A DNA stretch of 64,000 nt from Acidimicrobiia bacterium (GCA_022819505.1 JAJEHD010000018.1:560587-624586); one strand, 5' to 3'. Shown: positions 8,176 to 53,900, numbered from the stretch's first letter. The notes: generated by a model not told the origin, from the sequence alone. A program made the numbers and translations.

Positions 8176-8190
8176 GGGGCCTTGGCTGAG

Positions 8191-10608: not shown

Positions 10609-10612
10609 TCGG

Positions 10613-10648: not shown

Positions 10649-10652
10649 CCCG

Positions 10653-26860: not shown

Positions 26861-26862
26861 AC

Positions 26863-27138: not shown

Positions 27139-27148
27139 GGCGGCCGCC

Positions 27149-27910
27149 ATGAGCGAACCCCATGGCGTGCGGGAGTATCTGCTGGCCTTCGCCGACGACG
27201 AGCACCTGATGGGCCAGCAGCACACCGAGTGGATCGGCGTCGCCCCGTTCCTGGAGGAGGATCTGGCCGTCTCCAGCATCGGCCAGGACGAGCTCGGCCA
27301 CGCCGCGCTCCTCTATGAGTTGGTACTCGACCTGGAGGGGGTCGAAGCCACCGACCCGGCCCTGGACGTTCTCGCCTTCGGCCGTCCAAGTGACGACTAC
27401 CGGTGCTGCCATCTGGTGGAGTACACGACTCACGACTGGGCCGAGGCTCTGGTGCGCCACTGGATCTACGACACCTTCGAGGCGATGCGCTGGCAGTTGG
27501 TGGCTGGTTCGTCGCTGCCCAAGCTGGCGTCGGTCGCGCGCAAGGCACTCCAGGAGGAGGCGTTCCACCGCCGCCACGCCGATGCCCTGCTCGACAAGCT
27601 CCTGGACGCGCCGGAAGCACGTGAGCGGATCTTGGAGGCGCTTGGCGCGGTCTACCCGCTGGTCGAGGGACTGTGCGAGCCGGTCGAGGGCGAGGCCGGG
27701 GCCATGAGCACGGGCGTGGCCGCGGCGTCGACCGCGGACCTGCTCGAACCGCTCCATCAGGCCATCGAGGCGCGCTTCGACAGCTCGGACTCCATCGGCT
27801 CGCGAACCGCGAGCCTCCAGAATCGGCGAACGAAGAGGTCGGCGGACTTCGATCCGCTCCTGCGGCGCATGCGCGAGGTACTTGACTACGACCCCGGGGC
27901 CGTCTGGTGA
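27149..27910 (+). CDS. paaC: 1,2-phenylacetyl-CoA epoxidase, subunit C
   Basis: MSEPHGVREYLLAFADDEHLMGQQHTEWIGVAPFLEEDLAVSSIGQDELGHA is the PaaC ferritin-like pattern. Trimmed from track ORF 26915-27910. Confidence 0.85.
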   Translation: MSEPHGVREYLLAFADDEHLMGQQHTEWIGVAPFLEEDLAVSSIGQDELGHAALLYELVLDLEGVEATDPALDVLAFGRPSDDYRCCHLVEYTTHDWAEALVRHWIYDTFEAMRWQLVAGSSLPKLASVARKALQEEAFHRRHADALLDKLLDAPEARERILEALGAVYPLVEGLCEPVEGEAGAMSTGVAAASTADLLEPLHQAIEARFDSSDSIGSRTASLQNRRTKRSADFDPLLRRMREVLDYDPGAVW

Positions 27911-28827
27911 GCGACGGGCAGCCCGGGAGCGACCCCAAGGAGCGAGGCATTGCGGCCACGGTGCGCCGGACCTGCGAGCGGTCCGACATCTCCGCGAGGT
28001 CGGTGCTGGTGACGGTGCTCGGCGACTCCGTACTCCCGGTGACCAAGACGTTGTGGCTCTCCAGCCTGTTCGAGCTGGCTTCACCCTTCGGGTTCAGCGA
28101 GCGCCTCGTGCGCACGTCGATGTACCGGCTTGTGTCCGAGGGCTGGGTGTCCAACGAGCGAGTCGGTCGCCGCAGCCGCTACTCGCTGACCCTGCTGGCC
28201 GTGAGCGAGTCCGAGAATGCCGGTCGCAGGATCTACACCCGAGACCCGGCCCGGTGGGATGGCTCCTGGGCCTTTGCCGTGCTTGACGGGGCGCAGATGC
28301 AGGCACACGAGCGCGAGAGGATCGCCCGGCATCTGCGCTGGCACGGGTTCGTGGCCTTGGGCCGGGGACTGCTGGCCTCGCCGTCGGTGACGGTGCCGAG
28401 CCTGCGCGAGCTGCTGCGCCTTGTGGAGCCGGCCGCGGCAGTGCCGATCGGGCGGGCCGAGTTCGACGATCTCGACCGCCTGGTCGGGGAGGGCTTCTTT
28501 GCTGAAGCGTTCCGCGTCGATGACATCGAGAACGAGTACCGGGACTTCCTGGCCCGCTACGAGCCCTGGCAGAGTCACGATCTGAACGGGACGGCTCCGC
28601 TCGAGGCCTACGGGCTGCGCACAATGCTGGTGCACGAGTTCCGCCGGATCCGCCTGAGGGAACCCGACATGCCGGCGGAGCTCCTGCCGTCGGACTGGAT
28701 CGGCGACCGCGCCTTCGATGTCGCGGCCGACCTTTACCGCCGGCTCAGCCCGCCCGCAGCCCGAGCCCTGGGCGAGATCCTCGAGGTCGACTACCCCACC
28801 ACAATGCCCCGCCGCTTCGTGACCTGA
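27907..28827 (+). CDS. paaX: Phenylacetic acid degradation operon repressor PaaX
   Basis: ..SARSVLVTVLGDSVLP..LFELASPFGFSERLVRTSMYRLVSEGWV..RRSRYSLT.. is the PaaX winged-helix region. GTGA overlap with paaC. Confidence 0.85.
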   Translation: MSDGQPGSDPKERGIAATVRRTCERSDISARSVLVTVLGDSVLPVTKTLWLSSLFELASPFGFSERLVRTSMYRLVSEGWVSNERVGRRSRYSLTLLAVSESENAGRRIYTRDPARWDGSWAFAVLDGAQMQAHERERIARHLRWHGFVALGRGLLASPSVTVPSLRELLRLVEPAAAVPIGRAEFDDLDRLVGEGFFAEAFRVDDIENEYRDFLARYEPWQSHDLNGTAPLEAYGLRTMLVHEFRRIRLREPDMPAELLPSDWIGDRAFDVAADLYRRLSPPAARALGEILEVDYPTTMPRRFVT

Positions 28828-28853: not shown

Positions 28854-31160
28854 TCAGGGCCGGCGCTCTGTCAGTTCGCCCTCGACCCGCAGGTTGGGGA
28901 TGATGCGGTCGAGCCAGCGGGGCAGCCACCAGTTGCGGGCGCCGAGCAGCTCCATGGTGGAGGGCACGATCAGCATCCTCACCAGGGTGGCGTCGATGGC
29001 GATGGCGGTGGCCAGGCCGAGGCCGAAGAGCTTGACCGGCCTGCTGTCCTCCAGCACGAAGCTGCCGAACACGACGACCATGATGGCCGCGGCCGCGGTG
29101 ATCACGCGGGCGGTGGCGGCCAGGCCGTCGGCCACGGAGTTGACCGCGTCGCCGGTGCGCTCGTACTCCTCCTTCATGCGCGACAGCAGGAACACCTCGT
29201 AGTCCATCGACAGACCGAACAGGATCGCGAACAGCATCATCGGCACGAACGGTTCGATCGGTGCCGGCTCGACTCCGGTGATGCCGCCCAGCCATCCCCA
29301 CTGGAAGACGGCCACGACCACCCCGTAGGCCGCCCCGATCGACAGCATGTTCATGATCACCGCCTTGAGCGGCACCACCAGCGAACGGAACACCGCCATC
29401 AGCAGCAGGAATGACGCGCCCAGCACTGCCGCGAAGAAGACGGGGATGCGGCCGGCCAGATAGTCGCTGATGTCGATGTTGAAGGCCACCTGGCCCGCGA
29501 CCAGCGGGTCGAGGCGGACGCCGTCGAGAGCCAGAGGGACGACGTCGCCCCGGATCCGATGCACCAGGTCCTCGGTGGCCGCATCCTGGGGGCCGGTGGT
29601 GGGCTGGAGCCGGATGACCGCGGCCCGTCCGTCGGGGCTCGGTACCGCAGGCGACGCGAAGGTGACGCCGTCGGTGCGGTTCAACGCGTCCGACAGGTCG
29701 TTGAGGGTCGCCAGATCCTGCGGGCCCGACACCGTGGCCACCACCAGCAGCGGGCCGTTCGCCCCCGGCCCGAAGCCCTCCGAGATCAGGTCGTAGGCCC
29801 TGCGGGTGGTGGTCTCCTCCGCGAAGTTGCCCTCGTCGGAGAACCCCAGACGAAGGCCGAGCACCGGCGCGGCCAGCACCAGCAGCACCACGGTGCCGCC
29901 CACCGCGAACAGCCACGGCCGGGACTGGACCATCCGGCTGAGCCGGTACCAGCCGGTCTCGCGCCGCGGCTTGGGCTCACGGTGACGCACCACTCGTCTC
30001 AGCGGGTTGGAGGGGGTCTTGAACGCGCCCGCCACCAGCACGACCACGGCCAGGGGCACGCCCACCAGCAGCAGCCTGAAGCCGGTGCCGAAGCCGAGCA
30101 GGGCAACCGCGACCAGCGCAGAGGCCGCCACGCCCCGGAAGCGGGTCGTGGTTATCCGGTCACCGAGCAGGCCGATCACGGCAGGCAGAAGCGTCACCGA
30201 CCCGGCCATCACGACAGCCACGGTGATGGCCGCAGCCAGCCCCAGCCCGGCCACGAACGGCAGGCCGATGAGCAACAGACCCAGAAGCGACACCACCACA
30301 GTGGCACCCGCGAAGATCACTGCCCGGCCGGCCGAGTCGAGCGCGGCCGCAGCGGCCTCCTCCGCGCTCAAGCCGTCGCTGACCCACTCCCGGTAACGGG
30401 TGATTATGAACAGTGCGTAGTCGATGCCCACACCGATGCCGATCATGATGCCGATAGTCGGGGCGAACTCGGGAACGGTCGCCACGTTGCTCAGCAGCAC
30501 GACTCCGGCCGCGCCGACGCCCACACCGATGAGGGCCGTTCCGACGGTCATGCCCATGGCCACCACCGAGCCCACCGCCAGGATCAGCACGAACACCGCG
30601 AAAGCGAGCCCGATGGCCTCGGACTCGGGCGGCTCCCGGTCGGACAGCCAGGCCCCGCCTACCTCCACCTGAACGCCGTCCATCGAGCGCACCCCGACCT
30701 CATCGATGAGGCGTCCGATCTCAAGTCCGATCTCCTCCGCCTCGAAGGCGGAGGTGTCGGCCCCGGTGTCGACGTCGGCGTAGGCGATGAGGCCGGCTTC
30801 AGGGCCTTGAGCCGCTATGCGGCGACCCCCATCAGGGGCGTAGGGCGATCCGACGGTGACGCCCTCGATGGCCTCGACCCGCTCGAACAGCTCGGTCATG
30901 GAGGCCCGCACGGCCGGGTCGTCCACTCCCTGCTCGGCCCTGAAGACGATCCGGCCGCTGATCACCGCGCCGATACGGCCGAAGTGCGCGTCGAGGATGT
31001 CGGCGCCCAGGCTGCTCTCGGCGTCGGGCGCGGCCGGCGTGCCGCCGTACGCCGCGCCCACACCTCCCGAGGCCCCGGCAATTGTCACGATGATCAGCAG
31101 CCAGGCGATCAGAACCCGCCACGGATGCCGGTAGCACCACCGACCGAGAGAGGAGTACAC
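28854..31160 (-). CDS. MMPL-family (RND-superfamily) membrane transporter
   Basis: 768 aa with two blocks of about six TM helices, each followed by an extracytoplasmic domain, as in typical MMPL proteins. Confidence 0.85.
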   Translation of the reverse strand: MYSSLGRWCYRHPWRVLIAWLLIIVTIAGASGGVGAAYGGTPAAPDAESSLGADILDAHFGRIGAVISGRIVFRAEQGVDDPAVRASMTELFERVEAIEGVTVGSPYAPDGGRRIAAQGPEAGLIAYADVDTGADTSAFEAEEIGLEIGRLIDEVGVRSMDGVQVEVGGAWLSDREPPESEAIGLAFAVFVLILAVGSVVAMGMTVGTALIGVGVGAAGVVLLSNVATVPEFAPTIGIMIGIGVGIDYALFIITRYREWVSDGLSAEEAAAAALDSAGRAVIFAGATVVVSLLGLLLIGLPFVAGLGLAAAITVAVVMAGSVTLLPAVIGLLGDRITTTRFRGVAASALVAVALLGFGTGFRLLLVGVPLAVVVLVAGAFKTPSNPLRRVVRHREPKPRRETGWYRLSRMVQSRPWLFAVGGTVVLLVLAAPVLGLRLGFSDEGNFAEETTTRRAYDLISEGFGPGANGPLLVVATVSGPQDLATLNDLSDALNRTDGVTFASPAVPSPDGRAAVIRLQPTTGPQDAATEDLVHRIRGDVVPLALDGVRLDPLVAGQVAFNIDISDYLAGRIPVFFAAVLGASFLLLMAVFRSLVVPLKAVIMNMLSIGAAYGVVVAVFQWGWLGGITGVEPAPIEPFVPMMLFAILFGLSMDYEVFLLSRMKEEYERTGDAVNSVADGLAATARVITAAAAIMVVVFGSFVLEDSRPVKLFGLGLATAIAIDATLVRMLIVPSTMELLGARNWWLPRWLDRIIPNLRVEGELTERRP

Positions 31161-31277: not shown

Positions 31278-32726
31278 CTACTCGCCGCCGGGGAGCAGCG
31301 TGACGGGTACACGCTGCCAGTTGTTGCCGATCACGTCGACGCCCGCGTTGCGCAGGTTTGTGACCGCCTCCCAGGCGATCTCCGGGCGGTAGGCGTCGTC
31401 GTCGGGGGCCGAGGCGAGGATTCCTTCGCTGGTGGCCACTGCGACGGTCTGGTCCCACAGGTCCGTGTCCATCACGCCCACGCCCTGCGGCGACGGCCAG
31501 ATCAGGGCGTTGATCTCGTTGAGCTGCCAGGTCTGGTGCGACCGGCCCAGAGTGGGCGCGTTGTCGAGCACGATGTCCACGCACTCCTCGGGATTGTCGC
31601 GGCAGTAGATCCAGCCCATCAGCGATGCCTCCACGAACTTGACCGCCGTCTCGTGGTAGGCGGGGTCGTCGTCGAGGCGGTCGGCGTCGGCCCACAGGGC
31701 GTCCTGGAGCATGGCCGTGCCCACGTCGTTCCAGTTGATGATGTTCAGGTCCTCCGGCTGGTAGAGCTCGCCGGTGTCGGGGTTGACCGTCTCGAGCACC
31801 TGGGCGTACTCGTTGTAGATCATCGCCTGGGCGGCGTCGATCTCGCCGCTGATCAGGGCCAGCATGTCGAAGTTCTGCTGCACCAGCTGGACGTCGCTGG
31901 CCGGGTCGAGCCCGTTCCTGCGCAGCCCGGCCAGCAGCTCGAACTCGTTGCCGAATCCCCAGTTGCCCACCGTTCGGCCCTCCAGGTCGGCGACCGTGGA
32001 GATGCCGGTGTCGGCGAAGGCCACCTGCAGGGTGGCGCTGCGCTGGAACACCTGGGCGATATTGGTGATGTTGGCGCCTTCCTCTCGTGGCACGAGGCCC
32101 CGAGGCACCCACGACACCGCGAAGTCGGCCGCACCGGAGTCGAGCACCGAAGCGGGCACGATCTCCACGCCGCCCTCGAGGATCTCCACGTTCAGTCCGT
32201 AGTCCTCGTAGATGCCGGTGGCCACGGCCGCGTAGTAGCCCGCGAACTGGGACTGGGTGAACCACTGCAACTGCAGGGTGACGTCGGTCACCGTCTCGGG
32301 CTCCGGCTCAGGTTCGGCCATGGCCGCCTCCATGGCTGCTTCAGCCTCGGCCGCGGCCGCTTCCGCTTCGGCCTGAGCGGCCGCGGCCGCGTCGGCGTCT
32401 GCTTGGGCCGCATCCCGTTCCGCTTCGAGCGCGGCGACAACCTCGGGGTCTACAGCTCCTTCGGCTTCGGCCATGGCAGCCTCAAGGGCCGCCTCGGCCT
32501 CGGCCGCCCTGGCTGCGGCCGCGTCGGCCTCGGCTGCGGCTTCGTCGGCCTGAGCCTGCGCGGCGGCCGCGTCGGCCTCGGCTGCGGCTGCGGCAGCCTC
32601 GGCTGCGGCCGCGTCCGCCGCGCTGGTGTCCGGGGCTGGCTCGTCGTCCTCGCCGCAGGCCGCGGCGATCAGGCCTAGTGCCATCAATGGCACGAATAGA
32701 CGTACCAACGTGTTTCTTATTTTCAT
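31278..32726 (-). CDS. NMT1/THI5-type (TauA/SsuA-like) ABC substrate-binding lipoprotein with a long Ala/Glu/Asp-rich tether
   Basis: Lipobox LIAAAC. Low-complexity residues about 25-145. Then QLQWFTQSQFAGYYAA... binding domain. GGAGGG before the ATG. Confidence 0.8.
   Translation of the reverse strand: MKIRNTLVRLFVPLMALGLIAAACGEDDEPAPDTSAADAAAAEAAAAAAEADAAAAQAQADEAAAEADAAAARAAEAEAALEAAMAEAEGAVDPEVVAALEAERDAAQADADAAAAAQAEAEAAAAEAEAAMEAAMAEPEPEPETVTDVTLQLQWFTQSQFAGYYAAVATGIYEDYGLNVEILEGGVEIVPASVLDSGAADFAVSWVPRGLVPREEGANITNIAQVFQRSATLQVAFADTGISTVADLEGRTVGNWGFGNEFELLAGLRRNGLDPASDVQLVQQNFDMLALISGEIDAAQAMIYNEYAQVLETVNPDTGELYQPEDLNIINWNDVGTAMLQDALWADADRLDDDPAYHETAVKFVEASLMGWIYCRDNPEECVDIVLDNAPTLGRSHQTWQLNEINALIWPSPQGVGVMDTDLWDQTVAVATSEGILASAPDDDAYRPEIAWEAVTNLRNAGVDVIGNNWQRVPVTLLPGGE
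32292..32654 (-). repeat. Low-complexity coding repeat (Ala/Glu/Asp-rich linker) inside the binding-protein gene
   Basis: Degenerate GCC/GCG/GAG repeats. For example, ggccgcgtcggcctcggctgcggc occurs twice. Encodes AAAEAAAAAAEADAAAAQAQADEAAAEADAAAARAAEAEAALEAAMAEAE... Confidence 0.8.
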
Positions 32727-32819
32727 TGGGTTTCCCTCCTCAGTGGGCTTTCTCTTACGAGAATGAGTGCGAGCCTGCCAACCGGCCCCGGGTGGACGGC
32801 ACGGTGACGGGCCAAAGTG

Positions 32820-33602
32820 TCATGCGGATCTCCTGGCGGTGAAGTACCAGGGCATGACGAGGCGTTCGATCACGACCGCGAGCGCGTATAGACCGATCCC
32901 CACGAGCGAGCCGGCGAGCACCGCGGCCCAGGCGTCGTCGTAGCGGGTCAGTCCGGCCGAGTTGGTGATGAGGTTTCCGAGGGCGTCCTGGCGGCCGCCG
33001 AAATACTCGGCCACGATGGCCGCGATAACGGCCAGGGAGGTCGCCAGCTTCAGCGCGGTGAAGAAGAACGGCATGGCGTTGGGGATGCGCACCTCGCGCA
33101 TGATCCGCCACTTCCGGGCCCCGTAGGACTCCATCAGCTCGATCTGGCTGGGCTCCACCTGGGTCAGCCCGCGGGCCGTGTTGACGAAGACCGGGAAGAA
33201 CACCAGCACCACCACCACGGCTTGGTTGGATCGGGGCGAGAGGATCCCGAACCAGGCGTTGAAGATCGGCGCCAGCGCGATGATCGGCACTGCGTTTATG
33301 GCCACCGCTAGCGGGGTGAGCGTCTCGTTGGCGGCCCGGAAGGCGGTGACCAGCAGCGCGAACGCCGCCCCCACCACCACCCCGGCCAGAAGTCCGGTGA
33401 TGACGATGAAGCCGGTCACCCCGGTCGCGGTCACGATGGCGTCCCAGTTCTGGGCAACGGCGCCCCCGATCTCCGAGGGCGGCGGCAGCACGAAGCCGTC
33501 AGGTCGGATTATGGCCAGCAGGGCTTCCCAGCCGCCGAAGATGACCCCGGCGGCCACCACCGGCGGCAGCCAAGAGCGCAGCAGCGTCCTGGCCGCGGTC
33601 AC
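32820..33602 (-). CDS. ABC transporter permease (NitT/TauT family)
   Basis: Six-TM binding-protein-dependent permease pattern. 4-bp overlap with the ATPase gene. Confidence 0.85.
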   Translation of the reverse strand: MTAARTLLRSWLPPVVAAGVIFGGWEALLAIIRPDGFVLPPPSEIGGAVAQNWDAIVTATGVTGFIVITGLLAGVVVGAAFALLVTAFRAANETLTPLAVAINAVPIIALAPIFNAWFGILSPRSNQAVVVVLVFFPVFVNTARGLTQVEPSQIELMESYGARKWRIMREVRIPNAMPFFFTALKLATSLAVIAAIVAEYFGGRQDALGNLITNSAGLTRYDDAWAAVLAGSLVGIGLYALAVVIERLVMPWYFTARRSA

Positions 33603-34402
33603 GGTCGCTCACCTCCCCGCAGGGCGTTGCGGACCGTGGTCACGTTGGCGAAGAAGGCGGGGTCGTCGCGGGTCGCTTCGTTGCGCTCGCCCAGGTCGTT
33701 GTCCACGACGGCCGCGATCCTTCCCGGGCGGGGTGACATCACCACGACCTTGGTGGACAGGAACACCGCCTCGGGGATCGAGTGGGTCACGAACACCACC
33801 GTGATCTGGGTCTCGTTCCATATGCGCAGCAGCTCGTTCTGCATGTGCTCGCGGGTCATCTCGTCGAGCGCGCCGAACGGCTCGTCCATCAGCAGCAGCT
33901 TCGGATGAAAGGACATCGCCCGGGCGATGGCCACCCGCTGCTGCATCCCGCCCGACAGTTCGGCGGGATGGTGGCGGGCGAACTCGCCGAGCTTGACCAG
34001 CTCCAGCATCTCGGCCGAGCGCCGGCGGCGGTCGGCCGCCTTCCAGCCCATCAGCTCCAGCGGCAGCTCGATGTTGCGGGACACGTTGCGCCAGTCGAAC
34101 AGGCCGGCTCGCTGGAACACCATCGAGTAGTCCCGGTCGAGGCGGGCGGCGTCCGCGGTCTTGCCGTTCACCAGCACGGTCCCCTCAGTGGTGTCGATGA
34201 GCGCCGCGATGAGCCGCAGCAGCGTGCTCTTGCCGCAGCCCGAAGGGCCGATGAGGGTGACGAAGTCGCCCTGGCCGATGTCGAGGTCGATGTCCGCGAC
34301 GGCCTTGACCTCGTTGTGCCGTCCGGGGTTGAAGATCTTGGACCCGCCCCGGATCTCAACGGCCAGGGGGTGAGAATCCACGGCGCCTCCCGTGCCGGTC
34401 AT
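33599..34402 (-). CDS. ABC transporter ATP-binding protein (NitT/TauT family)
   Basis: GPSGCGKST Walker A, LSGGMQQRVAIARA signature, LLLMDEPFGALD Walker B. Trimmed from track ORF 33599-34828 to the ATG at 34402. Confidence 0.9.
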   Translation of the reverse strand: MTGTGGAVDSHPLAVEIRGGSKIFNPGRHNEVKAVADIDLDIGQGDFVTLIGPSGCGKSTLLRLIAALIDTTEGTVLVNGKTADAARLDRDYSMVFQRAGLFDWRNVSRNIELPLELMGWKAADRRRRSAEMLELVKLGEFARHHPAELSGGMQQRVAIARAMSFHPKLLLMDEPFGALDEMTREHMQNELLRIWNETQITVVFVTHSIPEAVFLSTKVVVMSPRPGRIAAVVDNDLGERNEATRDDPAFFANVTTVRNALRGGERP

Positions 34403-35418
34403 GTGACGGTCTCCCGACCCTTGCGACCGACCAGCGCGTACTCGATGGAGGAGATGGCCGCGAACACGAAGATCCCGAGGACGGCCGCGCCGAGCACGGC
34501 GATGTAGAGACGCTCGGGGCCGGTGGTGTAACGCTGGGCCTCCAGCAGCACCCGACGGCCGAGTCCGCCCTTCACCCCAGCGGAGATCTCGCCCACGATG
34601 GCCCCCACCACGCTGGCGGTCGCCGCGATCTTGAACGCCGCGAACAGGTACGGCAGCGAAGCCGGGAGCCGCAACCGCCACAGGGTCTGGCCCCAGCGGG
34701 CCGCGTAGGAGTCCATCAGCTCGAGGTTCTCCGGCCGGGGGGACTGCAGACCTCGGAGGCCGTTGATGGTCACCGGGAAGAAGGTGAGGTAGGTGGCGAT
34801 GATCGACACCGACATCCAGTCCTGCCACTCGAAGGGCAGGAAGTCGAAGCTCTTTCGGCCCCAGATCACGATGATGGGCGCGATGGCGATCAGCGGGATG
34901 GTCTGGCTCGCGATCACATGGGGGACCAGGGCCCGCTCCAGGCGCCCCGACGTGGTGAGCACGATGGCGATGCCGAGGCCGACGATCACGCCGATGGCGA
35001 AGCCGACCGCCGCCTCCCGCAGGGTGAAGGCGGCCTCCTTGCCGACGATCGACCAGAAGGCTTCGTTGGTTCCCCTGGGCTCCTCGAAGATTCCCGTGAC
35101 GATGTCAAGCACCGGCGGCATCTTGAGGTCGTCGGATCCGGGCAGGATCGAGCCGATGATCGGCCAGCCGGACTGGCTGTCGTCGATGGCGCTGCCGACC
35201 ACCTTGTAGAGGCTGTACAGCAGGCCTAGAAGACATGCGAACAGGGCCAGTACGACGACCTGCCGGCCGGTTCTCATCATCCGGGTCCGTCGCTGCTCGC
35301 GGGCCGCCCGCTGGCGGATCAGTTGCTCGAAGACGATCGGGTCGTCGATGGGTGAAGCCGGGGCCCCGTCACCCGAATCAATGATGGCTTCAACAACAGG
35401 TCCAGACTCAGAGTTCAC
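34399..35418 (-). CDS. ABC transporter permease (NitT/TauT family, second subunit with N-terminal extension)
   Basis: Multi-span hydrophobic protein. ATGA overlap with the ATPase gene. Confidence 0.8.
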   Translation of the reverse strand: MNSESGPVVEAIIDSGDGAPASPIDDPIVFEQLIRQRAAREQRRTRMMRTGRQVVVLALFACLLGLLYSLYKVVGSAIDDSQSGWPIIGSILPGSDDLKMPPVLDIVTGIFEEPRGTNEAFWSIVGKEAAFTLREAAVGFAIGVIVGLGIAIVLTTSGRLERALVPHVIASQTIPLIAIAPIIVIWGRKSFDFLPFEWQDWMSVSIIATYLTFFPVTINGLRGLQSPRPENLELMDSYAARWGQTLWRLRLPASLPYLFAAFKIAATASVVGAIVGEISAGVKGGLGRRVLLEAQRYTTGPERLYIAVLGAAVLGIFVFAAISSIEYALVGRKGRETVT

Positions 35419-35426
35419 GGTGGGGG

Positions 35427-36428
35427 TCAGTCCCTGAGGGCCGGGATGATGCGCTGGCCGTAGGCGTTGAGGGTCTCGTCCTTGGCGTCGTGCATCAGGT
35501 AGATGGCGAACTGGTCGACGCCGAGGTCGCGAAGCTCCCGGAGCCGGTCAACGTGATTGTCGGCGTCTCCGAGGATGCAGAAGCGGTCGATCACCTCGTC
35601 GGGCACGAAGTCGGTGTGCACGTTGCCCGCCTTGCCGTGCTCGGCGTAGTCGTAGCCCTCCCGGCCGGCGATGTAATCGGTGAGGGCCTGGGGCACTCCG
35701 GCGCCGGTGTCGCCGTAGCGGTCCACCAGGTCGGCCACATGGTTGCCGACCATGCCGCCGAACCAGCGAACCTGATCGCGCTGGTGGGCCAGGTCGTCGC
35801 CAACATAGGCGGGAGCGGCCACGCACATGTACAAGTCATCGGGATTGCGGCCCGCGTCGGCGGCGGCCTGGCGCACCGCCGCAATTGTCCACTCGGTTAT
35901 CTGGGGGTCCGCTAGCTGGAGGATGAAGCCGTCGGCCCGCTCGCCGCAGAGCTTGAGGGCCCGCGGTCCGTAGGCGGCCATCCAGATGTCGAGCCGGCTG
36001 CCCGTCGACCACGGCAGTTGCTGCTGGGTGCCGTTGTAGGTGACCTCACGGCCCTCGGCCATGCCCTTGATGACCGTAATGGCCTCGGCCAGGGTGGCGA
36101 GGCTGGTGGGGGTGTGGCCGAGCACTCGCATAGCCGAGTCGCCCCGGCCGATGCCGCACACGGTGCGGTTGCCGAACATGTCGTTGAGGGTGGCGAACAC
36201 CGAGGCCGTGACCGTCCAGTTGCGGGTGCCGGGGTTGGTGACCATGGGCCCGACGATCATGCGGTTGGTGGCCGACAGCATCTGGCTGTAGATCACGTAC
36301 GGCTCCTGCCATAGCACATGGCTGTCGAAGGTCCAGCCGTAGGAGAACCCGTGCGTCTCTGCCTGACGGGCCAGGTCCACGACCCGCCACGCCGGGGGAT
36401 CGGTCTGGAGTACGACGCCGAAGTCCAT
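35427..36428 (-). CDS. Luciferase-like (LLM-class) oxidoreductase resembling methylene-H4MPT reductase / F420-dependent LLMs
   Basis: MDFGVVLQTDPPAWRVVDLARQAETHGFSYGWTFDSHVLWQEPYV...GPMVTNPGTRNWTVTASVFATLNDMFGNRTVCGIGRGDS aligns by eye with Mer-type LLMs. Trimmed from track ORF 35427-36779. Confidence 0.7.
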   Translation of the reverse strand: MDFGVVLQTDPPAWRVVDLARQAETHGFSYGWTFDSHVLWQEPYVIYSQMLSATNRMIVGPMVTNPGTRNWTVTASVFATLNDMFGNRTVCGIGRGDSAMRVLGHTPTSLATLAEAITVIKGMAEGREVTYNGTQQQLPWSTGSRLDIWMAAYGPRALKLCGERADGFILQLADPQITEWTIAAVRQAAADAGRNPDDLYMCVAAPAYVGDDLAHQRDQVRWFGGMVGNHVADLVDRYGDTGAGVPQALTDYIAGREGYDYAEHGKAGNVHTDFVPDEVIDRFCILGDADNHVDRLRELRDLGVDQFAIYLMHDAKDETLNAYGQRIIPALRD

Positions 36429-36448
36429 GGTCCCTGCCCGGTTGGTCT

Positions 36449-37936
36449 CTAGCGGTTCCGGGGGAAGCCGAGGTCCACCGTGCTGTCGGCGGGATCGGGC
36501 CAGCGGGTGGTGATGGCCTTGGCCTTGGTGAAGAAGTGGATTCCCTCGGGGCCGTACATGTGGGTGTCGCCGAACAGCGAGTTCTTCCAGCCGCCGAAGG
36601 AGTGGCAGCCGACCGGCACCGGGATGGGGACGTTGACGCCGATCATGCCGGCGTCGGCGTCGAGCTGGAACTGGCGGGCGGCACCCCCGTCGCGGGTGAA
36701 GATGGCGGCGCCGTTGCCCCACGGGTTCTGGTCGATCAACTCGACGGCCTCGTGGTAGGTGTCGGAGCGCACCACGCACAGCACCGGCCCGAAGATCTCG
36801 TCCCGGTAGACGGTCATGTCGGGGGTGACGTTGTCGAGCAGCGACACACCCAGGAAGAACCCGTCGTTGTCGAAGACGGCCTCGCGCCCGTCCACCACCA
36901 CCGTTGCGCCCTCCTCCGCGCCGATGCCGACGTAGCCGGCCACCCGGTCGCGGTGCTCGCGGGTGATCAGGGGTCCCATCTCGGAGTCGGGGTCGTCGCC
37001 GGGCCCGATGCGCAGCTTGTCCATGCGCACCCTGATGGCGTCCACGAGGGGGTCGCCGGCGTCGCCCACGGCCACCACCACCGACACCGCCATGCAGCGC
37101 TCCCCGGCCGAGCCGTAGGCCGCGGAGACGGCTGCGTCGGCCGCTAGGTCCAGGTCGGCGTCGGGCAGCACCACCATGTGGTTCTTGGCCCCGGCCAGAG
37201 CCTGCACCCGCTTGCCGGCCGAGGTGCCTGTCTCGTAGACGTAGCGGGCGATGGGGGTGGACCCCACGAAGCTGACCGCCGCGATGTCGGGATGGGTCAG
37301 CAGCCGGTCCACGGCCATCTTGTCGCCGTTCACGACGTTGAGCACACCGGGCGGGAAGCCCGCCTCGAAGAACAGCTCAGCCACGAGACGGGGCGCCGAC
37401 GGGTCGCGCTCGGACGGTTTGAGCACGAAGGTGTTGCCGCAGGCGACCGCGTTGGGAATCATCCACAGCGGCACCATCGCCGGGAAGTTGAACGGCGTGA
37501 TGCCGGCCACCACCCCAAGCGGCTGGCGCACGGTGTGCACGTCGACACCTGTGGACGCCTGGGAGTTGAAGCTGCCCTTGAGCAGGTCGCCCAGGCCGCA
37601 CGCGAACTCGATGTTCTCCAGCCCCCGGGCGACCTCGCCCAGAGCGTCGGAGTGCACCTTTCCGTGCTCGGCCGTCAACCGGGCCGCGATCTCGGCGGCG
37701 TTGGCCTCCACCAGATTGCGGAAGGAGTGCATCAGCTTCGTCCGGGCCGCCAGCGATGTGTGACGCCACTCCTCGAAGGCGGCCGCCGACGAGGCGACCG
37801 CCGCGTCGACCTCCTCGACGCTGGCCAGCCCGACCTCTGAGGTCGGCTCGCCGGTAGCGGGGTTGTACACCGGGAGGGCACGGCCCGAGCCGCACTCCAG
37901 GATTGTTCCGTTCACGTAGTGGTGAATCGTCTCCAC
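36449..37936 (-). CDS. mmsA: CoA-acylating methylmalonate/malonate-semialdehyde dehydrogenase
   Basis: FNFPAMVPLWM and AGERCMAVS (catalytic Cys) motifs. GTG start preceded by AGGAGA. Trimmed from track ORF 36449-38128. Confidence 0.9.
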   Translation of the reverse strand: METIHHYVNGTILECGSGRALPVYNPATGEPTSEVGLASVEEVDAAVASSAAAFEEWRHTSLAARTKLMHSFRNLVEANAAEIAARLTAEHGKVHSDALGEVARGLENIEFACGLGDLLKGSFNSQASTGVDVHTVRQPLGVVAGITPFNFPAMVPLWMIPNAVACGNTFVLKPSERDPSAPRLVAELFFEAGFPPGVLNVVNGDKMAVDRLLTHPDIAAVSFVGSTPIARYVYETGTSAGKRVQALAGAKNHMVVLPDADLDLAADAAVSAAYGSAGERCMAVSVVVAVGDAGDPLVDAIRVRMDKLRIGPGDDPDSEMGPLITREHRDRVAGYVGIGAEEGATVVVDGREAVFDNDGFFLGVSLLDNVTPDMTVYRDEIFGPVLCVVRSDTYHEAVELIDQNPWGNGAAIFTRDGGAARQFQLDADAGMIGVNVPIPVPVGCHSFGGWKNSLFGDTHMYGPEGIHFFTKAKAITTRWPDPADSTVDLGFPRNR

Positions 37937-38003
37937 TTGACTTCTCCTGATTCCGGGGATGGGGTGGGTGCCACCGGAGCCCCCTGCTCCAGCGCCGGTG
38001 CGG

Positions 38004-39413
38004 TTACTGCAGGTACTGGGACAGGCCGCGCCGGAGGTAGACGCCGTCGCCGGCCCGGCCCAGGTACTGGCCGTCGTCGATGACCTTCTTGCCCCTGGAG
38101 AACACGGTGTCGACGTGCCCGGTGACACCGACGCCCTCGTAGGCGGAGTAGTCCATGTTCATGTGGTGGTTGTCGACGCTGATGGTCCACTGCTTGTTGG
38201 GGTCATAGATGACGACGTCGGCGTCGGATCCGGGGGCGATGATCCCCTTGCGGGGGTACAGGCCCATCATGCGGGCCGGTGTGGTGGCGCACAGCTCGAC
38301 CCAGCGGGCCAGGCCGATCTCGCCGGTGACCACGCCCTGGTAGATCATGTCCATGCGGTGCTCGACGCCGCCGATGCCGTTGGGGATGGCCCGGAAGTCA
38401 TTCAGGCCCAGCTCTTTCTGCTCCTTCATGCAGAACGGGCAGTGGTCGGTGGACACCACGGCCAGGTCGTTGGTGCGCAGGCCCCGCCAAAGGTCTTCCT
38501 GATGGCCCTCGGCCCGGGACCGGAGCGGCGTGGAGCACACGTAGCCGGCGCCCTCGAATCCGGGCCGGTCCAGATGCTCCTCCAGGCTGAAGTGCAGGTA
38601 CTGCGGGCACGTCTCGGCGAAGACGTTCATGCCGTCGTCGCGGGCGATGGCCACCTGCTCAAGGGCCTCGGAGGCGGACAGGTGAACGATGTACAGCGGG
38701 GCGGCGCCCACCTTGGCCAGCTGGATGGCCCGGTGAGTGGCCTCCGACTCCAGCTCCTTGCGACGCACGTAGCCGTGGTTGACGGGGCTGATCTCGCCCC
38801 GCTCGAAGGCCTGCTCGGCGAGCACATCGATAGCCAGGCCGTTCTCGGCGTGCATCATGATGAGCCCGCCGTTGCCGGCGGCCTGCTGCATGGCCCTCAG
38901 GATCTGGCCGTCGTCGGAGAGCATCACCCCCGGGTAGGCCATGAACAGCTTGAAGCTGGTGATCCCCTCGTTGACCAGCAGGTCCATCTCCTTGAGCGCG
39001 TCGTTGTCGACACCGCCGATGATCATGTGGAAGCCGTAGTCGATGGCGCAGTTGCCCTCCGCCTTGGCCATCCAGGCGTCGAGGCACTCGCGCACGTTCT
39101 CGCCGTACGTCTGCACCGCGAAGTCGACGATCGTGGTGGTCCCGCCCCAGGCCGCGGCCCTGGTGCCCGTCTCGAAGGTGTCGGAGGCGAACGTGCCGCC
39201 GAAGGGCAGCTCCATGTGGGTGTGGACGTCCACGCCGCCGGGAACGACCAGCCGGCCGGTGGCGTCGACGACCTCGGCCCCCTGCTCGGCCGCGACGGCG
39301 ATGTCGCTGCCGGGGCGCAGCACGGCCGTGATCTGCTCGCCGTCTATGAGCACCTCGGCCGGATCCGCGCCGGTCGCGCTGACGACGGTGCCTCCCTTGA
39401 TCAGCGTTGTCAT
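38004..39413 (-). CDS. Dihydropyrimidinase / D-hydantoinase
   Basis: MTTLIKGGTVV...VVPGGVDVHTHMELPFGGT is the cyclic amidohydrolase signature. Trimmed from track ORF 38004-40187. Confidence 0.9.
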   Translation of the reverse strand: MTTLIKGGTVVSATGADPAEVLIDGEQITAVLRPGSDIAVAAEQGAEVVDATGRLVVPGGVDVHTHMELPFGGTFASDTFETGTRAAAWGGTTTIVDFAVQTYGENVRECLDAWMAKAEGNCAIDYGFHMIIGGVDNDALKEMDLLVNEGITSFKLFMAYPGVMLSDDGQILRAMQQAAGNGGLIMMHAENGLAIDVLAEQAFERGEISPVNHGYVRRKELESEATHRAIQLAKVGAAPLYIVHLSASEALEQVAIARDDGMNVFAETCPQYLHFSLEEHLDRPGFEGAGYVCSTPLRSRAEGHQEDLWRGLRTNDLAVVSTDHCPFCMKEQKELGLNDFRAIPNGIGGVEHRMDMIYQGVVTGEIGLARWVELCATTPARMMGLYPRKGIIAPGSDADVVIYDPNKQWTISVDNHHMNMDYSAYEGVGVTGHVDTVFSRGKKVIDDGQYLGRAGDGVYLRRGLSQYLQ

Positions 39414-39463
39414 CTTCGTCTCCTTCTGGGATTTGCCAGTGATGCGACTGGAAGGTCCGGGGG

Positions 39464-40306
39464 TCAGGGAGCGGTCAGTGAGTCGTAGAGGTCGGGCCGG
39501 CGGTCCCGGTAGAAGGCCCACTGTGACCGGACCTCCTCGATCTGGTCGAGGTCGAGGTCGCGCACCACCAGCTCCTCGGTCTGGTCCGAGGCGGTGCCGT
39601 CCACGAACTGGCCCCTGGGATTGGCGAAATACGAGGTGCCGTAGAAGTCGTTGTCGCCCAGGGGCTCGATCCCGACCCGGTTGATGGCCCCCACGAAGTA
39701 CATGTTGGCCACCGCGGCGGAGGTCTGCTCGAGCTGCCAGAGGTAGGCGGAGAGCCCCCGGCTGGTGGCCGACGGGTTGAACACGATCTCGGCACCGGCC
39801 AGCCCCAGGGCGCGCCAGCCCTCGGGGAAGTGGCGGTCGTAGCAGATGTACACCCCAACCGTGCCGACGGCCGTCTCGAACACCGGGTATCCCATGTTGC
39901 CGGGACGGAAGTAGAACTTCTCCCAGAAGCCCTTCACCTGGGGGATGTGGGTCTTGCGGTACTTGCCCAGGTAGGTGCCGTCGGCGTCTATCACGGCTGC
40001 GGTGTTGTACAGGAACCCCGCCTTCTCCCGCTCGTACATGGGCAGCACCAGCACCATCTCGTGCTTGGCCGCCAGCTCCTGGAAGCGCTTGGTGGTCGGC
40101 CCGTCGGGGATGGCCTCGGCGTAGCCGTAGAACTCGGTGTCCTGGACCTGGCAGAAGTAGGGGCCGTAGAACAGCTCCTGGAAGCACATCACCTGTGTGC
40201 CGGCTGCGGCCGCCTCGGCCACGTACTTCTCGTGGAGCTCGATCATCGACTCCTTGTCACCCGTCCAAGCCACCTGGACAATGGCGGAAGTAACGGTTCG
40301 TACCAT
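39464..40306 (-). CDS. Beta-ureidopropionase / N-carbamoyl-beta-amino acid amidohydrolase (CN-hydrolase family)
   Basis: Catalytic triad context FQELF (Glu), YRKTHIP (Lys), ICYDRHFPE (Cys). GGGAGGG before the ATG at 40306. Confidence 0.85.
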   Translation of the reverse strand: MVRTVTSAIVQVAWTGDKESMIELHEKYVAEAAAAGTQVMCFQELFYGPYFCQVQDTEFYGYAEAIPDGPTTKRFQELAAKHEMVLVLPMYEREKAGFLYNTAAVIDADGTYLGKYRKTHIPQVKGFWEKFYFRPGNMGYPVFETAVGTVGVYICYDRHFPEGWRALGLAGAEIVFNPSATSRGLSAYLWQLEQTSAAVANMYFVGAINRVGIEPLGDNDFYGTSYFANPRGQFVDGTASDQTEELVVRDLDLDQIEEVRSQWAFYRDRRPDLYDSLTAP

Positions 40307-40353: not shown

Positions 40354-40386
40354 GAAAGGGCGATCTTAGCGAACCTGCCGCTGGCG

Positions 40387-40902
40387 TCAATGCTGAAAGC
40401 TGCGGCGAGAGGAGATCACCCCGGTGTCGAAGCCGGACAGGTGCAGGCCGCCGTGGAAGCGGGCGTGCTCGATCTTGAGGCAGCGGTCCATCACCACGTC
40501 GAGGCCTGCGGCGGTGCATCGCCGGGCGGCCTCCGGGCTCCACAACCCGAGCTGCGCCCAGAAGACCGGAGCACCCACTGCGATGGCCTCGTCGGCCACG
40601 GCGGGCAGATCCTCGGAGCGGCGGAACGCGTCGACGATGTCGGGTGTGACCGGCAGGTCTGCCAGCGACGCGTACACCTTTCGGCCGAGGATCTCTGTGC
40701 CGGCCAACCGGGGGTTCACCGGGTACACCTCGAAGTCGGTGGACGACGACAGCAGGTAGGTGAGGACGAAGTAGCTGGCTCGGGCCAGGTTGGCGGAGGC
40801 GCCGACGACCGCCACCGTCTCGGAGCGGTTCAGGATCCGCTGACGCTCGAGCGCGGTCGGCGGCGTCCAGCCCTCGACGGGCGGGTGATCAGCCTCAGGC
40901 AC
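40387..40902 (-). CDS. CoA-binding domain protein (YccU/YneT-like)
   Basis: ..TVAVVGASANLARASYFV..YPVNP..ILGRKVYASLADLP..PDIVDAFR.. is the CoA-binding Rossmann pattern. 8-bp overlap with metY. Confidence 0.8.
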   Translation of the reverse strand: MPEADHPPVEGWTPPTALERQRILNRSETVAVVGASANLARASYFVLTYLLSSSTDFEVYPVNPRLAGTEILGRKVYASLADLPVTPDIVDAFRRSEDLPAVADEAIAVGAPVFWAQLGLWSPEAARRCTAAGLDVVMDRCLKIEHARFHGGLHLSGFDTGVISSRRSFQH

Positions 40903-42193
40903 CGGAGTCCTTCGTGGCCGCTGTCAGGGCCTGGTCGAGGTCCCAGATGATGTCGTCGACGTCCTCCAGGCCGACCGATATGCGCACCATGTCCGGCGAC
41001 ACGCCCCCCGCCTCCAACTCGGCGTCGGAGAGCTGCTGGTGGGTGGTGGAGGCCGGGTGTATGACCAGCGTCTTGGCGTCGCCCACATTGGCGAGATGCG
41101 ACACCATCTGCAGCGACTCGATGAAGCGGGCACCGGCGGCACGCCCGCCCACCACGCCGAAGGTGAAGATGGCGCCCGGTCCCTTGGGCAGGTAGCGGTT
41201 GGCCAGGTCGTGCTGGGGATGGTCGGGCAGGCCCGCCCACAGCACCCACGCCACCCGTTCGTCGGCGTCGAGCCACTCGGCCACGGCCCGGGCGTTGGCG
41301 ACATGGGCGTCCATGCGCAGCGGCAGCGTCTCGATCCCCTGCAGCAGCAGGAAGGCGTTGAACGGGGACAGGCAGGCGCCGACGTCACGCAGCTGCTCGG
41401 CCCGGACCTTCGTGCAGAAGGCGTACTCGCCGAAGTTGTCCCACCAGCGCAGCTCGTTGTAGCTCGGGATCCGATCGACCATGTGCGGGAACCGGCCCGA
41501 GTCCCAGTCGAAGCGGCCCGCCTCCACGATCACTCCCGCGATGGAGGTTCCGTGGCCGCCCAGGAACTTGGTGGCCGAATGCAGGGCGATGTCGGCGCCG
41601 TGGTCCAGCGGGCGGCACAGGTACGGGGTGGCGAACGTCGAGTCGACCGCCAGCGGCAGGCGGTGGGCCTGGGCCACGTCGGCTAGGGCGGCCAGGTCGG
41701 CCACCGCGCCGGAGGGGTTGGCGATGATCTCGGTGTAGAGCAGCTTCGTGTTGGGCCGTACCGCCGCGGCGAAAGCGTCGGGATCGGTTCCGTCGACGAA
41801 CGTCGTGTCGATGCCGAGGCGTCGCAGCGTCACGTCCAGGAGCGTGTAGGTGCCGCCGTAGAGGCCGGCCGCGGCCACTACGTGTTGGCCGGCGGAGGCC
41901 AGCGCCGTGACGGTGAGGAACTCGGCGGCCTGACCGCTGGAGGTGGCCACCGCTCCGATGCCCCCCTCGAGGCTGGCCATGCGCTCCTCGAAGGCCGCGT
42001 TCGTCGGGTTGGAGATCCGCGTGTAGAACGGGCCGTACTTCTGGAGGGCGAACAGGTCGGCGGCATCGGCGGTGTCCTCGAACACGAAGCTCGTCGACTG
42101 GTAGATGGGCACCGCCCTAGCGCCGGTGGTGGGGTCGGGTTGGCCGCCTGCGTGCAGGGCCCGGGTACGGAACCCCCAATTCCGGTCTTCCAT
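40895..42193 (-). CDS. metY: O-acetylhomoserine sulfhydrylase (aminocarboxypropyltransferase), PLP-dependent
   Basis: [21 protein letters not shown]-like N-terminus and PLP lysine motif [11 protein letters not shown]. Trimmed from track ORF 40895-42325 to the ATG at 42193. Confidence 0.9.
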
Positions 42194-42200
42194 GCCTTGA

Positions 42201-42430
42201 CGATACTCATCCCGGACTCGTCCCGGCCGGCGGGTCCTGTCGCCGAGCCGAGATGATCGACACGGGCTTCGCCCTATTCGTCGGTCATCTGACTCGTCGC
42301 CACCCCCCGGCCTGGCGATACTCATCCCGGACTCGTCCCGGCCGGCGGGTCCTGTCGCCGAGCCGAGATGACCGACACGGGCTTCGCCCTATTCGTCGGT
42401 CATCTGACTCGTCGCCACCCCCCGGCCTGG
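42201..42430. repeat. Direct tandem duplication, 2 x 115 bp, one mismatch (42257 T vs 42372 C)
   Basis: Read directly: unit 1 is 42201-42315 and unit 2 is 42316-42430. Each unit holds an extended hairpin, AGATGA(T/C)CGAC..GGGCttcGCCC..GTCGGTCATCT (42251-42290 and 42366-42405). Confidence 0.95.
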
Positions 42431-43069: not shown

Positions 43070-44020
43070 CTAGGTACTGACCACGGCCTCCACGATCAGG
43101 TCGATCACGGCTGAGGCGTCGGCGTCCCACACGACATCGTGGAACTGCGGGGCCGGACTCGCGGCAATGGCGGCCGGCGGGCGCACGTCGGTCACGGTCA
43201 TGCCGCGGGTGTGCTCACCGTGCAACTCCACCGCCACCGGGTGGCTCGACCGGCGGAAGAGGTGGGGGTGGGTGACCGCGATGATGGCGGTGGCGTCGTG
43301 CACCGGGGCCGCTTCCAGGCCGAACTCGCGGCACCGGTCGTAGGCGAACTCCAGCAGGCCGGCCGCGAAATCGGCCGCGGGGGTGCCGGCCGAGCGCATC
43401 CGGGCCGCCTCGTCACCGCCCAGCAGGACCCGGTGGGTGACGTCGAGGCCGACCATGGTGAGCGGGGCCGCCTCGTTGAACACGATGGCGGCCGCCTCGG
43501 GATCGGCCCAGACGTTGAACTCGGCCACCGGGGTGACGTTCCCGGCGTGGGCTCCGCCGCCCATGATCGTGAGGCCGGCCAGGCGGCTGCGCAGGTGGGG
43601 GTCGCGTCGCAGCGCGAGGGCGACGTTCGTCAGGGGACCCACCGCCACCAGGTGCACGTCGTCGACGGAGCGGGCCGTGTCGCACAGGAACGCCACGGCG
43701 TCGTCGGAGGCCACCGAGCGGGTGAGTTCGGGCAGGGCGACGTCGCCCAGCCCGGTGGCTCCGTGGATGCGGGCCGCGTCCATGGTGGGAGCGATCAGCG
43801 GGCGGGCCGCGCCCCGGTGCACGGGCACGTCCAGGCTGGCTATCTGCGCGGTGGCCAGCGCGTTGTGGGTGGTGTGGTCGATGCCGACGTTGCCGTTGAC
43901 AGTGGTGATTCCCAGCAGCTCACCGAAGTGGGCTGCGGTGAGGATGGCGATGGCGTCGTCCAGTCCTGGGTCGCAGTCGAGCACGATCCTGGGTCGGGCG
44001 GTCACGGCTTCGGCATTCAT
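43070..44020 (-). CDS. Nucleoside hydrolase (inosine/uridine-preferring, Rih-like)
   Basis: N-terminal Ca-binding signature IVLDCDPGLDDAIAIL. Confidence 0.9.
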   Translation of the reverse strand: MNAEAVTARPRIVLDCDPGLDDAIAILTAAHFGELLGITTVNGNVGIDHTTHNALATAQIASLDVPVHRGAARPLIAPTMDAARIHGATGLGDVALPELTRSVASDDAVAFLCDTARSVDDVHLVAVGPLTNVALALRRDPHLRSRLAGLTIMGGGAHAGNVTPVAEFNVWADPEAAAIVFNEAAPLTMVGLDVTHRVLLGGDEAARMRSAGTPAADFAAGLLEFAYDRCREFGLEAAPVHDATAIIAVTHPHLFRRSSHPVAVELHGEHTRGMTVTDVRPPAAIAASPAPQFHDVVWDADASAVIDLIVEAVVST

Positions 44021-44029
44021 CGTTCGAGC

Positions 44030-44971: not shown

Positions 44972-45002
44972 CGCGGCAGTCTAGGGCCGGCCCGGCCGGC
45001 GG

Positions 45003-51912: not shown

Positions 51913-51972
51913 CGCGCCAGAACGCCTCTTTCGGACGGTTGCGCCAATAGCATTGCCGGGCCAGCAGCGCAG

Positions 51973-52033
51973 TCTGGCGGAGTTTCACGGCTAGGCGCCG
52001 GCTCACGGGCCTCTACTGGGAGGGCAATCGGGA
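51973..52033 (+). promoter_or_regulatory. Conserved 61-nt leader, copy 2
   Basis: See 49905-49965. Confidence 0.45.
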
Positions 52034-53893: not shown

Positions 53894-53900
53894 GGGACCA

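Follow-up and report, generated by a model that had tools for sequence, protein, structure and literature searches.

The stretch analysed here, 64,000 nucleotides from an Acidimicrobiia bacterium (GCA_022819505.1, JAJEHD010000018.1:560587-624586), is referred to below as the window. Its G+C content is 65-71%. Region 31278-40306 of the window is filled by eight co-directional minus-strand genes, as seen from the open reading frame (ORF) listing and the third-position G+C (GC3), and not by nine, as had been counted in an earlier note made from the sequence alone. All genes described in that note are recognised by Pfam and NCBIfam models with the same coordinates and strand (Table 1). Among them are genes for enzymes of reductive pyrimidine catabolism, genes for an ABC transporter, and the gene of a luciferase-like oxidoreductase (LLM), a candidate for the first step of the pathway, the reduction of the C5=C6 bond of uracil or thymine. 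The intergenic gaps, from the CN-hydrolase gene to the binding-protein gene, are 50, 67, 20, 8, -4, -4 and 93 nt, which fits with one transcription unit; the ATPase gene starts 4 nt inside the permease gene before it. The nucleotide sequence of the operon is about 88% identical to those of an Acidimicrobiaceae metagenome-assembled genome (MAG; locus L001 of the survey below) and of a genome labelled Ca. Aldehydirespirator sp. (L003). Together with the nearest named relatives of the LLM, given below, this places the source among sponge-associated Acidimicrobiia, as a species distinct from those of the genome collection surveyed.

Table 1. Genes of the candidate pyrimidine operon and features upstream of it, in window coordinates. 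Scores are in bits, with model cut-offs where given.
Feature	Position	Strand	Evidence
NMT1/THI5-type solute-binding lipoprotein	31278-32726	-	PF09084, 122.9
ABC permease 2 (BPD_transp_1)	32820-33602	-	PF00528
ABC ATPase, NitT/TauT-like	33599-34402	-	PF00005
ABC permease 1 (BPD_transp_1)	34399-35418	-	PF00528
LLM oxidoreductase, 333 aa, proposed step 1	35427-36428	-	PF00296; TIGR03842, 595.6 (cut-off 295.45)
CoA-acylating (methyl)malonate-semialdehyde dehydrogenase (MmsA), step 5	36449-37936	-	TIGR01722, 702.9 (cut-off 448.5)
Dihydropyrimidinase / D-hydantoinase, step 2	38004-39413	-	TIGR02033 equivalog, 533.9 (cut-off 393.25)
CN-hydrolase, probable beta-ureidopropionase (N-carbamoyl-beta-alanine amidohydrolase), step 3	39464-40306	-	PF00795, 223
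Sigma-70-like promoter match, within the 80 nt that precede the CN-hydrolase gene	40363-40390	-	TTGACG-16-TAAGAT, 9/12 matches
CoA_binding_2 protein, co-directional, upstream of the operon	40387-40902	-	
MetY-type enzyme, co-directional, upstream of the operon	40895-42325	-	
Nucleoside hydrolase	43070-44020	-	PF01156, 297; nearest NCBIfam UriH/RihC/RihA, below cut-offs
Ribokinase-like PfkB kinase	44030-44971	-	PF00294, 204; nearest NCBIfam ribokinase, below cut-off

The gene content resembles that of the Pyd pathway (PydA/PreTA, PydB, PydC, an aminotransferase and MmsA), as dihydropyrimidinase, CN-hydrolase, CoA-acylating dehydrogenase and a candidate base transporter are encoded in one operon. 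Steps 2 and 5, and probably step 3, are present, in agreement with the earlier note: the dihydropyrimidinase and MmsA score above the cut-offs of their models, and the CN-hydrolase is assigned from its close structural relatives. The best of the latter are plant N-carbamoylputrescine amidase (1.7e-57) and the beta-ureidopropionases of Drosophila and human (~1e-56), whereas D-carbamoylases are matched at ~1e-24 only. No curated NCBIfam model reaches its cut-off with this protein, and N-carbamoylputrescine amidase and beta-ureidopropionase are about equally close to it; the gene context makes beta-ureidopropionase the probable identity. A D-hydantoinase/D-carbamoylase system producing D-amino acids was considered and rejected, because the CN-hydrolase is far nearer to beta-ureidopropionase and carbamoylputrescine amidase than to the D-carbamoylases.

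Pfam scans that took in essentially all GC3-supported ORFs found no DHO_dh, PreT-type or Aminotran_3 protein in the 64 kb. The PreT, PreA and RutA-F proteins of E. coli, taken from the MG1655 record, were compared by tblastn with the window and with the 80 related loci described below (flanks up to 10 kb). PreT, PreA and RutB-F had no match at E<=1e-3 in either; RutA had no match below 1e-8 in the window, and in the 80 loci it matched just an unrelated LLM of locus L019. A class-III aminotransferase was also absent from the window in tblastn searches with two cluster-type queries from relatives (E<=0.01). Three earlier statements about these 64 kb, that they encode no PydA/PreT/PreA-like protein, no aminotransferase and no RutB-G proteins, agree with these searches.

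Of the transporter components, the ATPase is nearest to the NCBIfam models of taurine, SaoA and nitrate ATPases. The solved relatives of the binding protein include 4NMY and ThiY (3IX1), a binder of formylaminopyrimidine, and on the basis of such similarity this lipoprotein is a probable binder of pyrimidine bases. Its lipobox LIAAAC is followed by a low-complexity linker of about 110 aa, rich in Ala, Glu and Asp (residues ~25-145). Owing to this linker the protein has 482 aa, compared to a median of ~389 aa for the orthologues at other loci. A spurious ORF of 380 aa occurs on the opposite strand, at 31536-32678 (+).

About 3 kb upstream of the operon, genes for a nucleoside hydrolase, a PfkB-family kinase and a protein of the "putative cyclase" family lie in a row (43070-45965, minus strand). 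This row is syntenic in the relative L003. It is plausible that the nucleoside hydrolase and the ribokinase-like kinase constitute a feeder step, converting uridine to uracil and ribose.

The LLM protein and its family

Residues 2-331 of the LLM cover the complete profile of TIGR03842 (F420_CPS_4043; positions 1-329 of 329). All but one of its other NCBIfam matches are F420-class LLMs, and the RutA model is not among them. All its sequence matches in PDB are F420 enzymes: methylene-tetrahydromethanopterin reductase (Mer, 2e-30), hydroxymycolic acid dehydrogenase (fHMAD), FGD1 and Adf. The AlphaFold2 model has a mean pLDDT of 88.7 and is confident except at residues ~230-280; when it was compared with PDB by Foldseek, each of the top 22 structures was that of an F420-dependent LLM, and FMN enzymes ranked lower. 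The LLM is thus of F420 type in its family, its sequence and its fold. Family membership and the neighbours of the predicted structure point to F420 rather than FMN as its cofactor. PF00296 is its only Pfam domain; the FMN domain related to dihydroorotate dehydrogenase (DHODH; PF01180) and the iron-sulfur (FeS) and FAD partners found in PydA/PreTA do not occur in it.

The closest solved structure is Mer (8QPL, 1Z69), with 25-26% identity, a TM-score of ~0.8 and the motifs VTNP and GxGD in common. The protein had been called Mer-like rather than RutA-like, and this description holds, although both Mer models stay under their cut-offs (TIGR03555, 123.3 bits against 348.7; NF002619, 136 bits against 276). 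The position of Glu6 of M. jannaschii Mer (changed in the E6Q variant, PDB 8QQ8) is occupied in the LLM by Val6, a valine that at least 97% of 200 sequences of the family share. Further positions are conserved in the family and differ from Mer: Arg95, in the motif GIGRGD that reads GIGPGD in Mer; Trp140, Tyr153 and Trp180; the block R221-W-F-G-G-M-V-G-N-H230; and Y259-D260-Y261 with H264. The last group falls in the low-confidence insertion of the model, which probably forms a lid over the active site. Glu6 is reportedly the catalytic residue of Mer. The possibility that the protein is Mer itself was rejected, given the scores below cut-off, the change of Glu6 to Val6, and a window with no one-carbon (C1) or tetrahydromethanopterin genes.

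RutA also has the LLM fold and, according to the E. coli annotation, acts on uracil, so one can ask whether the protein could be an FMN-dependent monooxygenase of the RutA type that opens the uracil ring oxidatively. This is hardly credible. RutA carries out an FMN- and O2-dependent ring opening that needs RutB-F, none of which was detected in the searches described above; the protein has neither a RutA-type NCBIfam match nor a significant sequence match to RutA, and its nearest structures are all F420 enzymes. Moreover, in a Rut-type route the dihydropyrimidinase and the beta-ureidopropionase would have no substrate. With no sequence match and no rut genes in the window, a RutA-like monooxygenase was rejected.

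Gene neighbourhoods of the LLM

The LLM was aligned with close and distant homologues, and the alignment was used to fetch 80 genomic loci. These had the highest scores among at least 599 matches and are fairly close relatives (67% identity or more). The window proteins were compared with them by tblastn, and their ORFs were clustered all against all, the clusters being labelled with Pfam. Gene counts refer to those 57 loci in which the LLM gene has a flank of at least 6 kb on either side. Among named organisms, the sponge symbiont Ca. Poriferisodalis has the nearest relatives of the LLM protein; the loci from Acidimicrobiia also include sponge-associated Ca. Poriferisocius and Ca. Aldehydirespirator, as well as Ilumatobacter and Microthrix. 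The other loci come from Streptomyces, Actinoplanes, Kribbella, Frankiaceae, Kineosporiaceae, Streptosporangiaceae and Jatrophihabitans, and from a few MAGs labelled otherwise.

A dihydropyrimidinase gene is found near the LLM gene at 55 of the 57 loci, always on the same strand and with a median gap of -37 nt, and a CN-hydrolase gene at 53, again always on the same strand. Other genes occur at fewer loci: class-III aminotransferase within 10 kb at 37, with position and strand varying; MmsA at 21, usually directly upstream of the LLM gene; and a MocR-type regulator at 13. A transporter is encoded at 37 loci, namely the ABC system with the NMT1 binding protein (29) or an NCS1 nucleobase permease (8), and ABC permease 1 stands alongside the LLM gene in about half of the loci. 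In Streptomyces the NCS1 permease takes the place of the NMT1 ABC transporter, and its gene directly follows the LLM gene in the loci checked. At 14 loci the LLM gene has beside it just the dihydropyrimidinase and/or the CN-hydrolase gene, with or without a transporter, and thus these two ring-processing enzymes are its tightest partners. The LLM, dihydropyrimidinase and CN-hydrolase genes form a conserved three-gene core. The earlier note had named an outcome that would speak against its reading, namely an LLM gene that accompanies the transporter and not the pyrimidine enzymes; this was not observed.

Relatives of the window operon add the class-III aminotransferase of the Pyd pathway. In several Acidimicrobiia and in Streptomyces its gene lies between those of the CN-hydrolase and the dihydropyrimidinase, and the lineage of the window has simply lost it from this position in its cluster. 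On the other hand, the resemblance to the Pyd pathway does not extend to its first enzyme: instead of a DHODH-like/FeS dehydrogenase, found neither in the window nor in the 80 loci, there is a non-homologous TIM-barrel LLM. Its relation to PydA/PreTA is proposed as one of functional analogy and not of membership.

The linkage can be followed beyond the 80 loci. The metagenome homologues P0121 (67% identity), P0132 and P0136 (~42%) are flanked by Amidohydro_1 and/or CN_hydrolase genes, and the loci of P0121 and P0132 also contain the NMT1 ABC transporter and Aminotran_3. The LLMs P0154 and P0167 (40-41% identity) have different neighbours and are probably not orthologues of the LLM of the window. 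The contigs of two other distant representatives, P0124 and P0149, are too short for a gene context to be seen.

Between the window and Streptomyces or Actinoplanes, the LLM is 67-70% identical, the dihydropyrimidinase 62-69% and the permeases ~40-45%. This conservation of the LLM is unusually high, being equal to or above that of the adjacent dihydropyrimidinase and far above that of the permeases (L001-L080).

Some family members of 70-83% identity come from MAGs with non-actinobacterial labels: L017 (Binatia), L021 (Pirellulaceae) and P0052 (Verrucomicrobiales). At locus L021 there are genes for CN-hydrolase, dihydropyrimidinase, MmsA and LLM, whose products are up to 84% identical to those of the window. 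Mis-binning or a recent transfer is suggested by these cases.

A more distant locus encoding a 42%-identity homologue (L087, 3728-16022; also L088 and L089) contains genes for the NMT1 ABC transporter, Amidohydro_1, LLM, CN_hydrolase, FAA_hydrolase, a second LLM, two CoA-transferase subunits, a second amidohydrolase, Aminotran_3 and a GntR/UTRA regulator. Possibly, this cluster encodes a variant pathway for another cyclic ureide. At L086 (1646-6759) a 41%-identity LLM adjoins a 446-aa LLM, an isochorismatase-family protein (the family of RutB) and an amidase. The context there is a different one, with some resemblance to Rut, and shows how far the orthologous group extends.

Candidate reduction of the pyrimidine ring by the LLM

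In many actinobacterial lineages the LLM gene stands next to the genes of the same two enzymes of the pyrimidine ring, and this makes the LLM probably a member of an undescribed class of uracil reductases. The reading that we favour, with a probability of about 0.6, is that the operon encodes the uptake of uracil, thymine or both and their reductive breakdown, in which the LLM would act as an F420H2-dependent C5=C6 reductase replacing dihydropyrimidine dehydrogenase. According to the earlier note, the LLM could carry out the missing reduction of the ring by means of a deazaflavin hydride, or it could have a related substrate, and comparative genomics, as the sole line of support, speaks for this suggestion.

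As to the substrate of the LLM, the direction of the reaction, the use of F420 and the proton donor, we infer the following scheme. The NMT1-type ABC system would import the base, which may also be released from uridine by the nearby nucleoside hydrolase and ribokinase. The LLM would then stand in for PydA/PreTA, the flavin/FeS enzyme that normally takes this step: C6 of uracil or thymine would receive the C5 hydride of F420H2, and C5 a proton from an acid in the active site, yielding the 5,6-dihydropyrimidine. By alignment position, candidates for the proton donor are the conserved His37 (motif DSH) and Asp97 (GRGD) and the family-specific Arg95. The ring would be opened by the dihydropyrimidinase, and the CN-hydrolase would produce beta-alanine or beta-aminoisobutyrate, CO2 and NH3. 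An aminotransferase, presumably encoded elsewhere in this genome and within the cluster in relatives, would form (methyl)malonate semialdehyde, to be converted by MmsA to acetyl- or propionyl-CoA.

Published data on the cofactor are relevant here. The E0' of F420 is -340 mV, whereas that of NAD(P)H, which canonical dihydropyrimidine dehydrogenase uses as its donor, is -320 mV (PMC8518648). Streptomyces and other actinomycetes are documented F420 producers (PMC8498797), and F420 biosynthesis genes have been reported for the acidimicrobiial order Ca. Actinomarinales (PMC7771536).

Two described systems are similar, by their description, to the one proposed here. SSGG-03002/NpsU, a putative oxidoreductase dependent on F420/FMN, is genetically required for reduction of the uracil-ring C5=C6 bond in mureidomycins (PMC10714638). 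This is the same chemistry as that proposed for the LLM; however, the enzyme of mureidomycin/napsamycin biosynthesis acts on a uridyl-peptide in antibiotic biosynthesis, and its activity in vitro was not obtained (PMC10714638). In uricolytic clusters of Chloroflexota, a putative F420 LLM, "yanthine reductase", occurs in place of the PydA homologues YgfK/UacX (PMC12507026, Life Metab 2025). This is the same kind of replacement, also next to an amidohydrolase, but it concerns the uric acid pathway, another phylum and another substrate, and the evidence for it is bioinformatic only.

The Chloroflexota case, with its purine-derived ring, bears on a different assignment of the substrate: the LLM might reduce another cyclic ureide, such as a 5-substituted hydantoin, a modified pyrimidine or a purine-derived ring, with the "dihydropyrimidinase" working as a hydantoinase. 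Indeed, TIGR02033 spans both D-hydantoinase and dihydropyrimidinase activities, the NCS1 permeases of the Streptomyces loci are nearest to transporters of the allantoin/hydantoin type, and the distant cluster L087 has further genes, for a second LLM and a second amidohydrolase as well as for an FAA hydrolase and a CoA transferase. Nevertheless, we consider such a substrate unlikely. The affinities of the CN-hydrolase described above, together with the frequent class-III aminotransferase and the CoA-acylating dehydrogenase, favour beta-alanine or beta-aminoisobutyrate as the product, and such a product favours uracil or thymine over 5-substituted hydantoins as the starting compound. The uridine-type nucleoside hydrolase and the ribokinase nearby also argue for a pyrimidine.

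One more possibility is that the LLM acts at the end of the pathway, as an F420-dependent malonate-semialdehyde reductase or 3-hydroxypropionate dehydrogenase similar in role to PydE/RutE, the ring being reduced by a dihydropyrimidine dehydrogenase encoded elsewhere in the genome. The characterised F420-dependent LLMs (Adf, FGD, fHMAD, fPKR) are mostly alcohol dehydrogenases and ketoreductases (PMC8498797; PDB matches), in favour of this role. The pattern of gene neighbours makes it quite unlikely. The constant partners of the LLM are the dihydropyrimidinase and the CN-hydrolase, whereas just 37 of the 57 loci have the aminotransferase from which its substrate would come, and 14 loci lack both the aminotransferase and MmsA. 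Besides, in the window and at 20 other loci MmsA already uses up the semialdehyde.

Several observations weigh against ring reduction by the LLM. C=C bonds are less often the target of F420-dependent LLMs than are alcohols, ketones and imines. To our knowledge, no member of TIGR03842 has been characterised biochemically or genetically, and NCBIfam (June 2026) still files the family as a hypothetical equivalog with no function. Neither F420 biosynthesis genes (fbiA-D/cofC-H) nor an F420-reducing enzyme (Fgd/Fno) was seen within the 64 kb, and a canonical pydA/preTA may exist elsewhere in this or related genomes. Dihydropyrimidinase is missing from two of the 57 loci: L017, where the LLM gene has unrelated neighbours and no pyrimidine genes beside it, and L037, which retains the CN-hydrolase and the ABC transporter. 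Finally, the 80 loci are interrelated, so that the counts do not represent independent events, and they do not sample the proteobacterial branch of TIGR03842.

The close relationship of the sampled loci, the context of the LLM gene in L017 and the other neighbours of the LLMs at 40-41% identity could also mean that the LLM has nothing to do with pyrimidine breakdown and has been carried along, its linkage reflecting shared ancestry of the sampled genomes. This is very unlikely, as the linkage has outlasted rearrangement of the loci across at least seven actinobacterial families: transporters have been swapped, and MmsA and the aminotransferase gained, lost, moved or flipped to the other strand. 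It is still seen at ~42% identity, and the gaps of 8-20 nt flanking the LLM gene in the window indicate co-transcription.

Returning to reduction of uracil and thymine by the LLM, we lean, if slightly, towards the more general statement that TIGR03842 represents a third class of dihydropyrimidine dehydrogenase, one that is non-homologous and reduces uracil/thymine with F420H2, serving Streptomyces, Actinoplanes, many other Actinomycetota and the abundant marine and sponge-associated Acidimicrobiia. If true, the family fills the gap at the first step of the pyrimidine pathway for a large part of Actinomycetota, a widespread F420-type LLM gains a role in primary catabolism, and coenzyme F420 serves the central nitrogen and nucleobase catabolism of aerobic bacteria. 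The LLM would then be a single-domain analogue of dihydropyrimidine dehydrogenase without an FeS cluster, which in our view could have a bearing on fluoropyrimidine metabolism and on biocatalytic routes to dihydropyrimidines and beta-amino acids. The family is abundant in metagenomes, with more than 8000 matches at E<=1e-20 as a lower bound.

In the searchable full-text literature we found no description of TIGR03842 as the first enzyme of pyrimidine catabolism or of its pyrimidine-operon context, and such a role is not given in two 2021 surveys of F420 enzymes (PMC8498797, PMC8518648). One of them, a FEMS review, has the entry "other LLHTs: unknown" and counts among the open questions what the many predicted F420 enzymes do physiologically (PMC8498797). 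Both the gene family and the pathway are already known; what is predicted here is that an F420-type LLM has taken the place of dihydropyrimidine dehydrogenase as a non-orthologous replacement.

Other features of the window

The gap upstream of the CN-hydrolase gene contains a sigma-70-like promoter match (Table 1). Two such matches occur in 16 kb, compared to 1.0 expected from shuffled sequence, which is not significant; the position alone is suggestive, as weak evidence. The scan for promoters and terminators gave nothing above chance, and an Rfam scan of the window gave zero family matches.

At 306-5829 there is a CUT2-type ABC importer with a double ATPase and two BPD_transp_2 permeases, the ATPase being nearest to a "putative B6" transporter model, below cut-off. 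It adjoins a 622-aa amidohydrolase or deaminase of the TRZ/ATZ type with an N-terminal extension of ~160 aa. Region 5418-11324 contains three paralogous Rieske/VanA_C-type oxygenases (5418-6557, minus; 6816-7943, minus; 8196-9353, plus), a GcvT-like aminomethyltransferase (9262-10608, plus) and a GntR/FCD regulator (10653-11324, minus). It looks like a cluster for demethylation of methylated amines of the betaine or carnitine type.

Downstream of the operon, the gene of an MMPL transporter (28854-31160, minus strand) flanks it. Directly beside this gene lies a partial phenylacetate-catabolism set (23836-28827, plus strand), encoding a PaaZ-like Aldedh+MaoC fusion, two proteins of the PaaA/PaaC family and a PaaX-type regulator. 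On the other side of the operon, region 49966-59963 (plus strand) contains three tandem SBP_bac_5 paralogues of ~590-650 aa each, followed by one Opp/Dpp-type set of two permeases and two ATPases.

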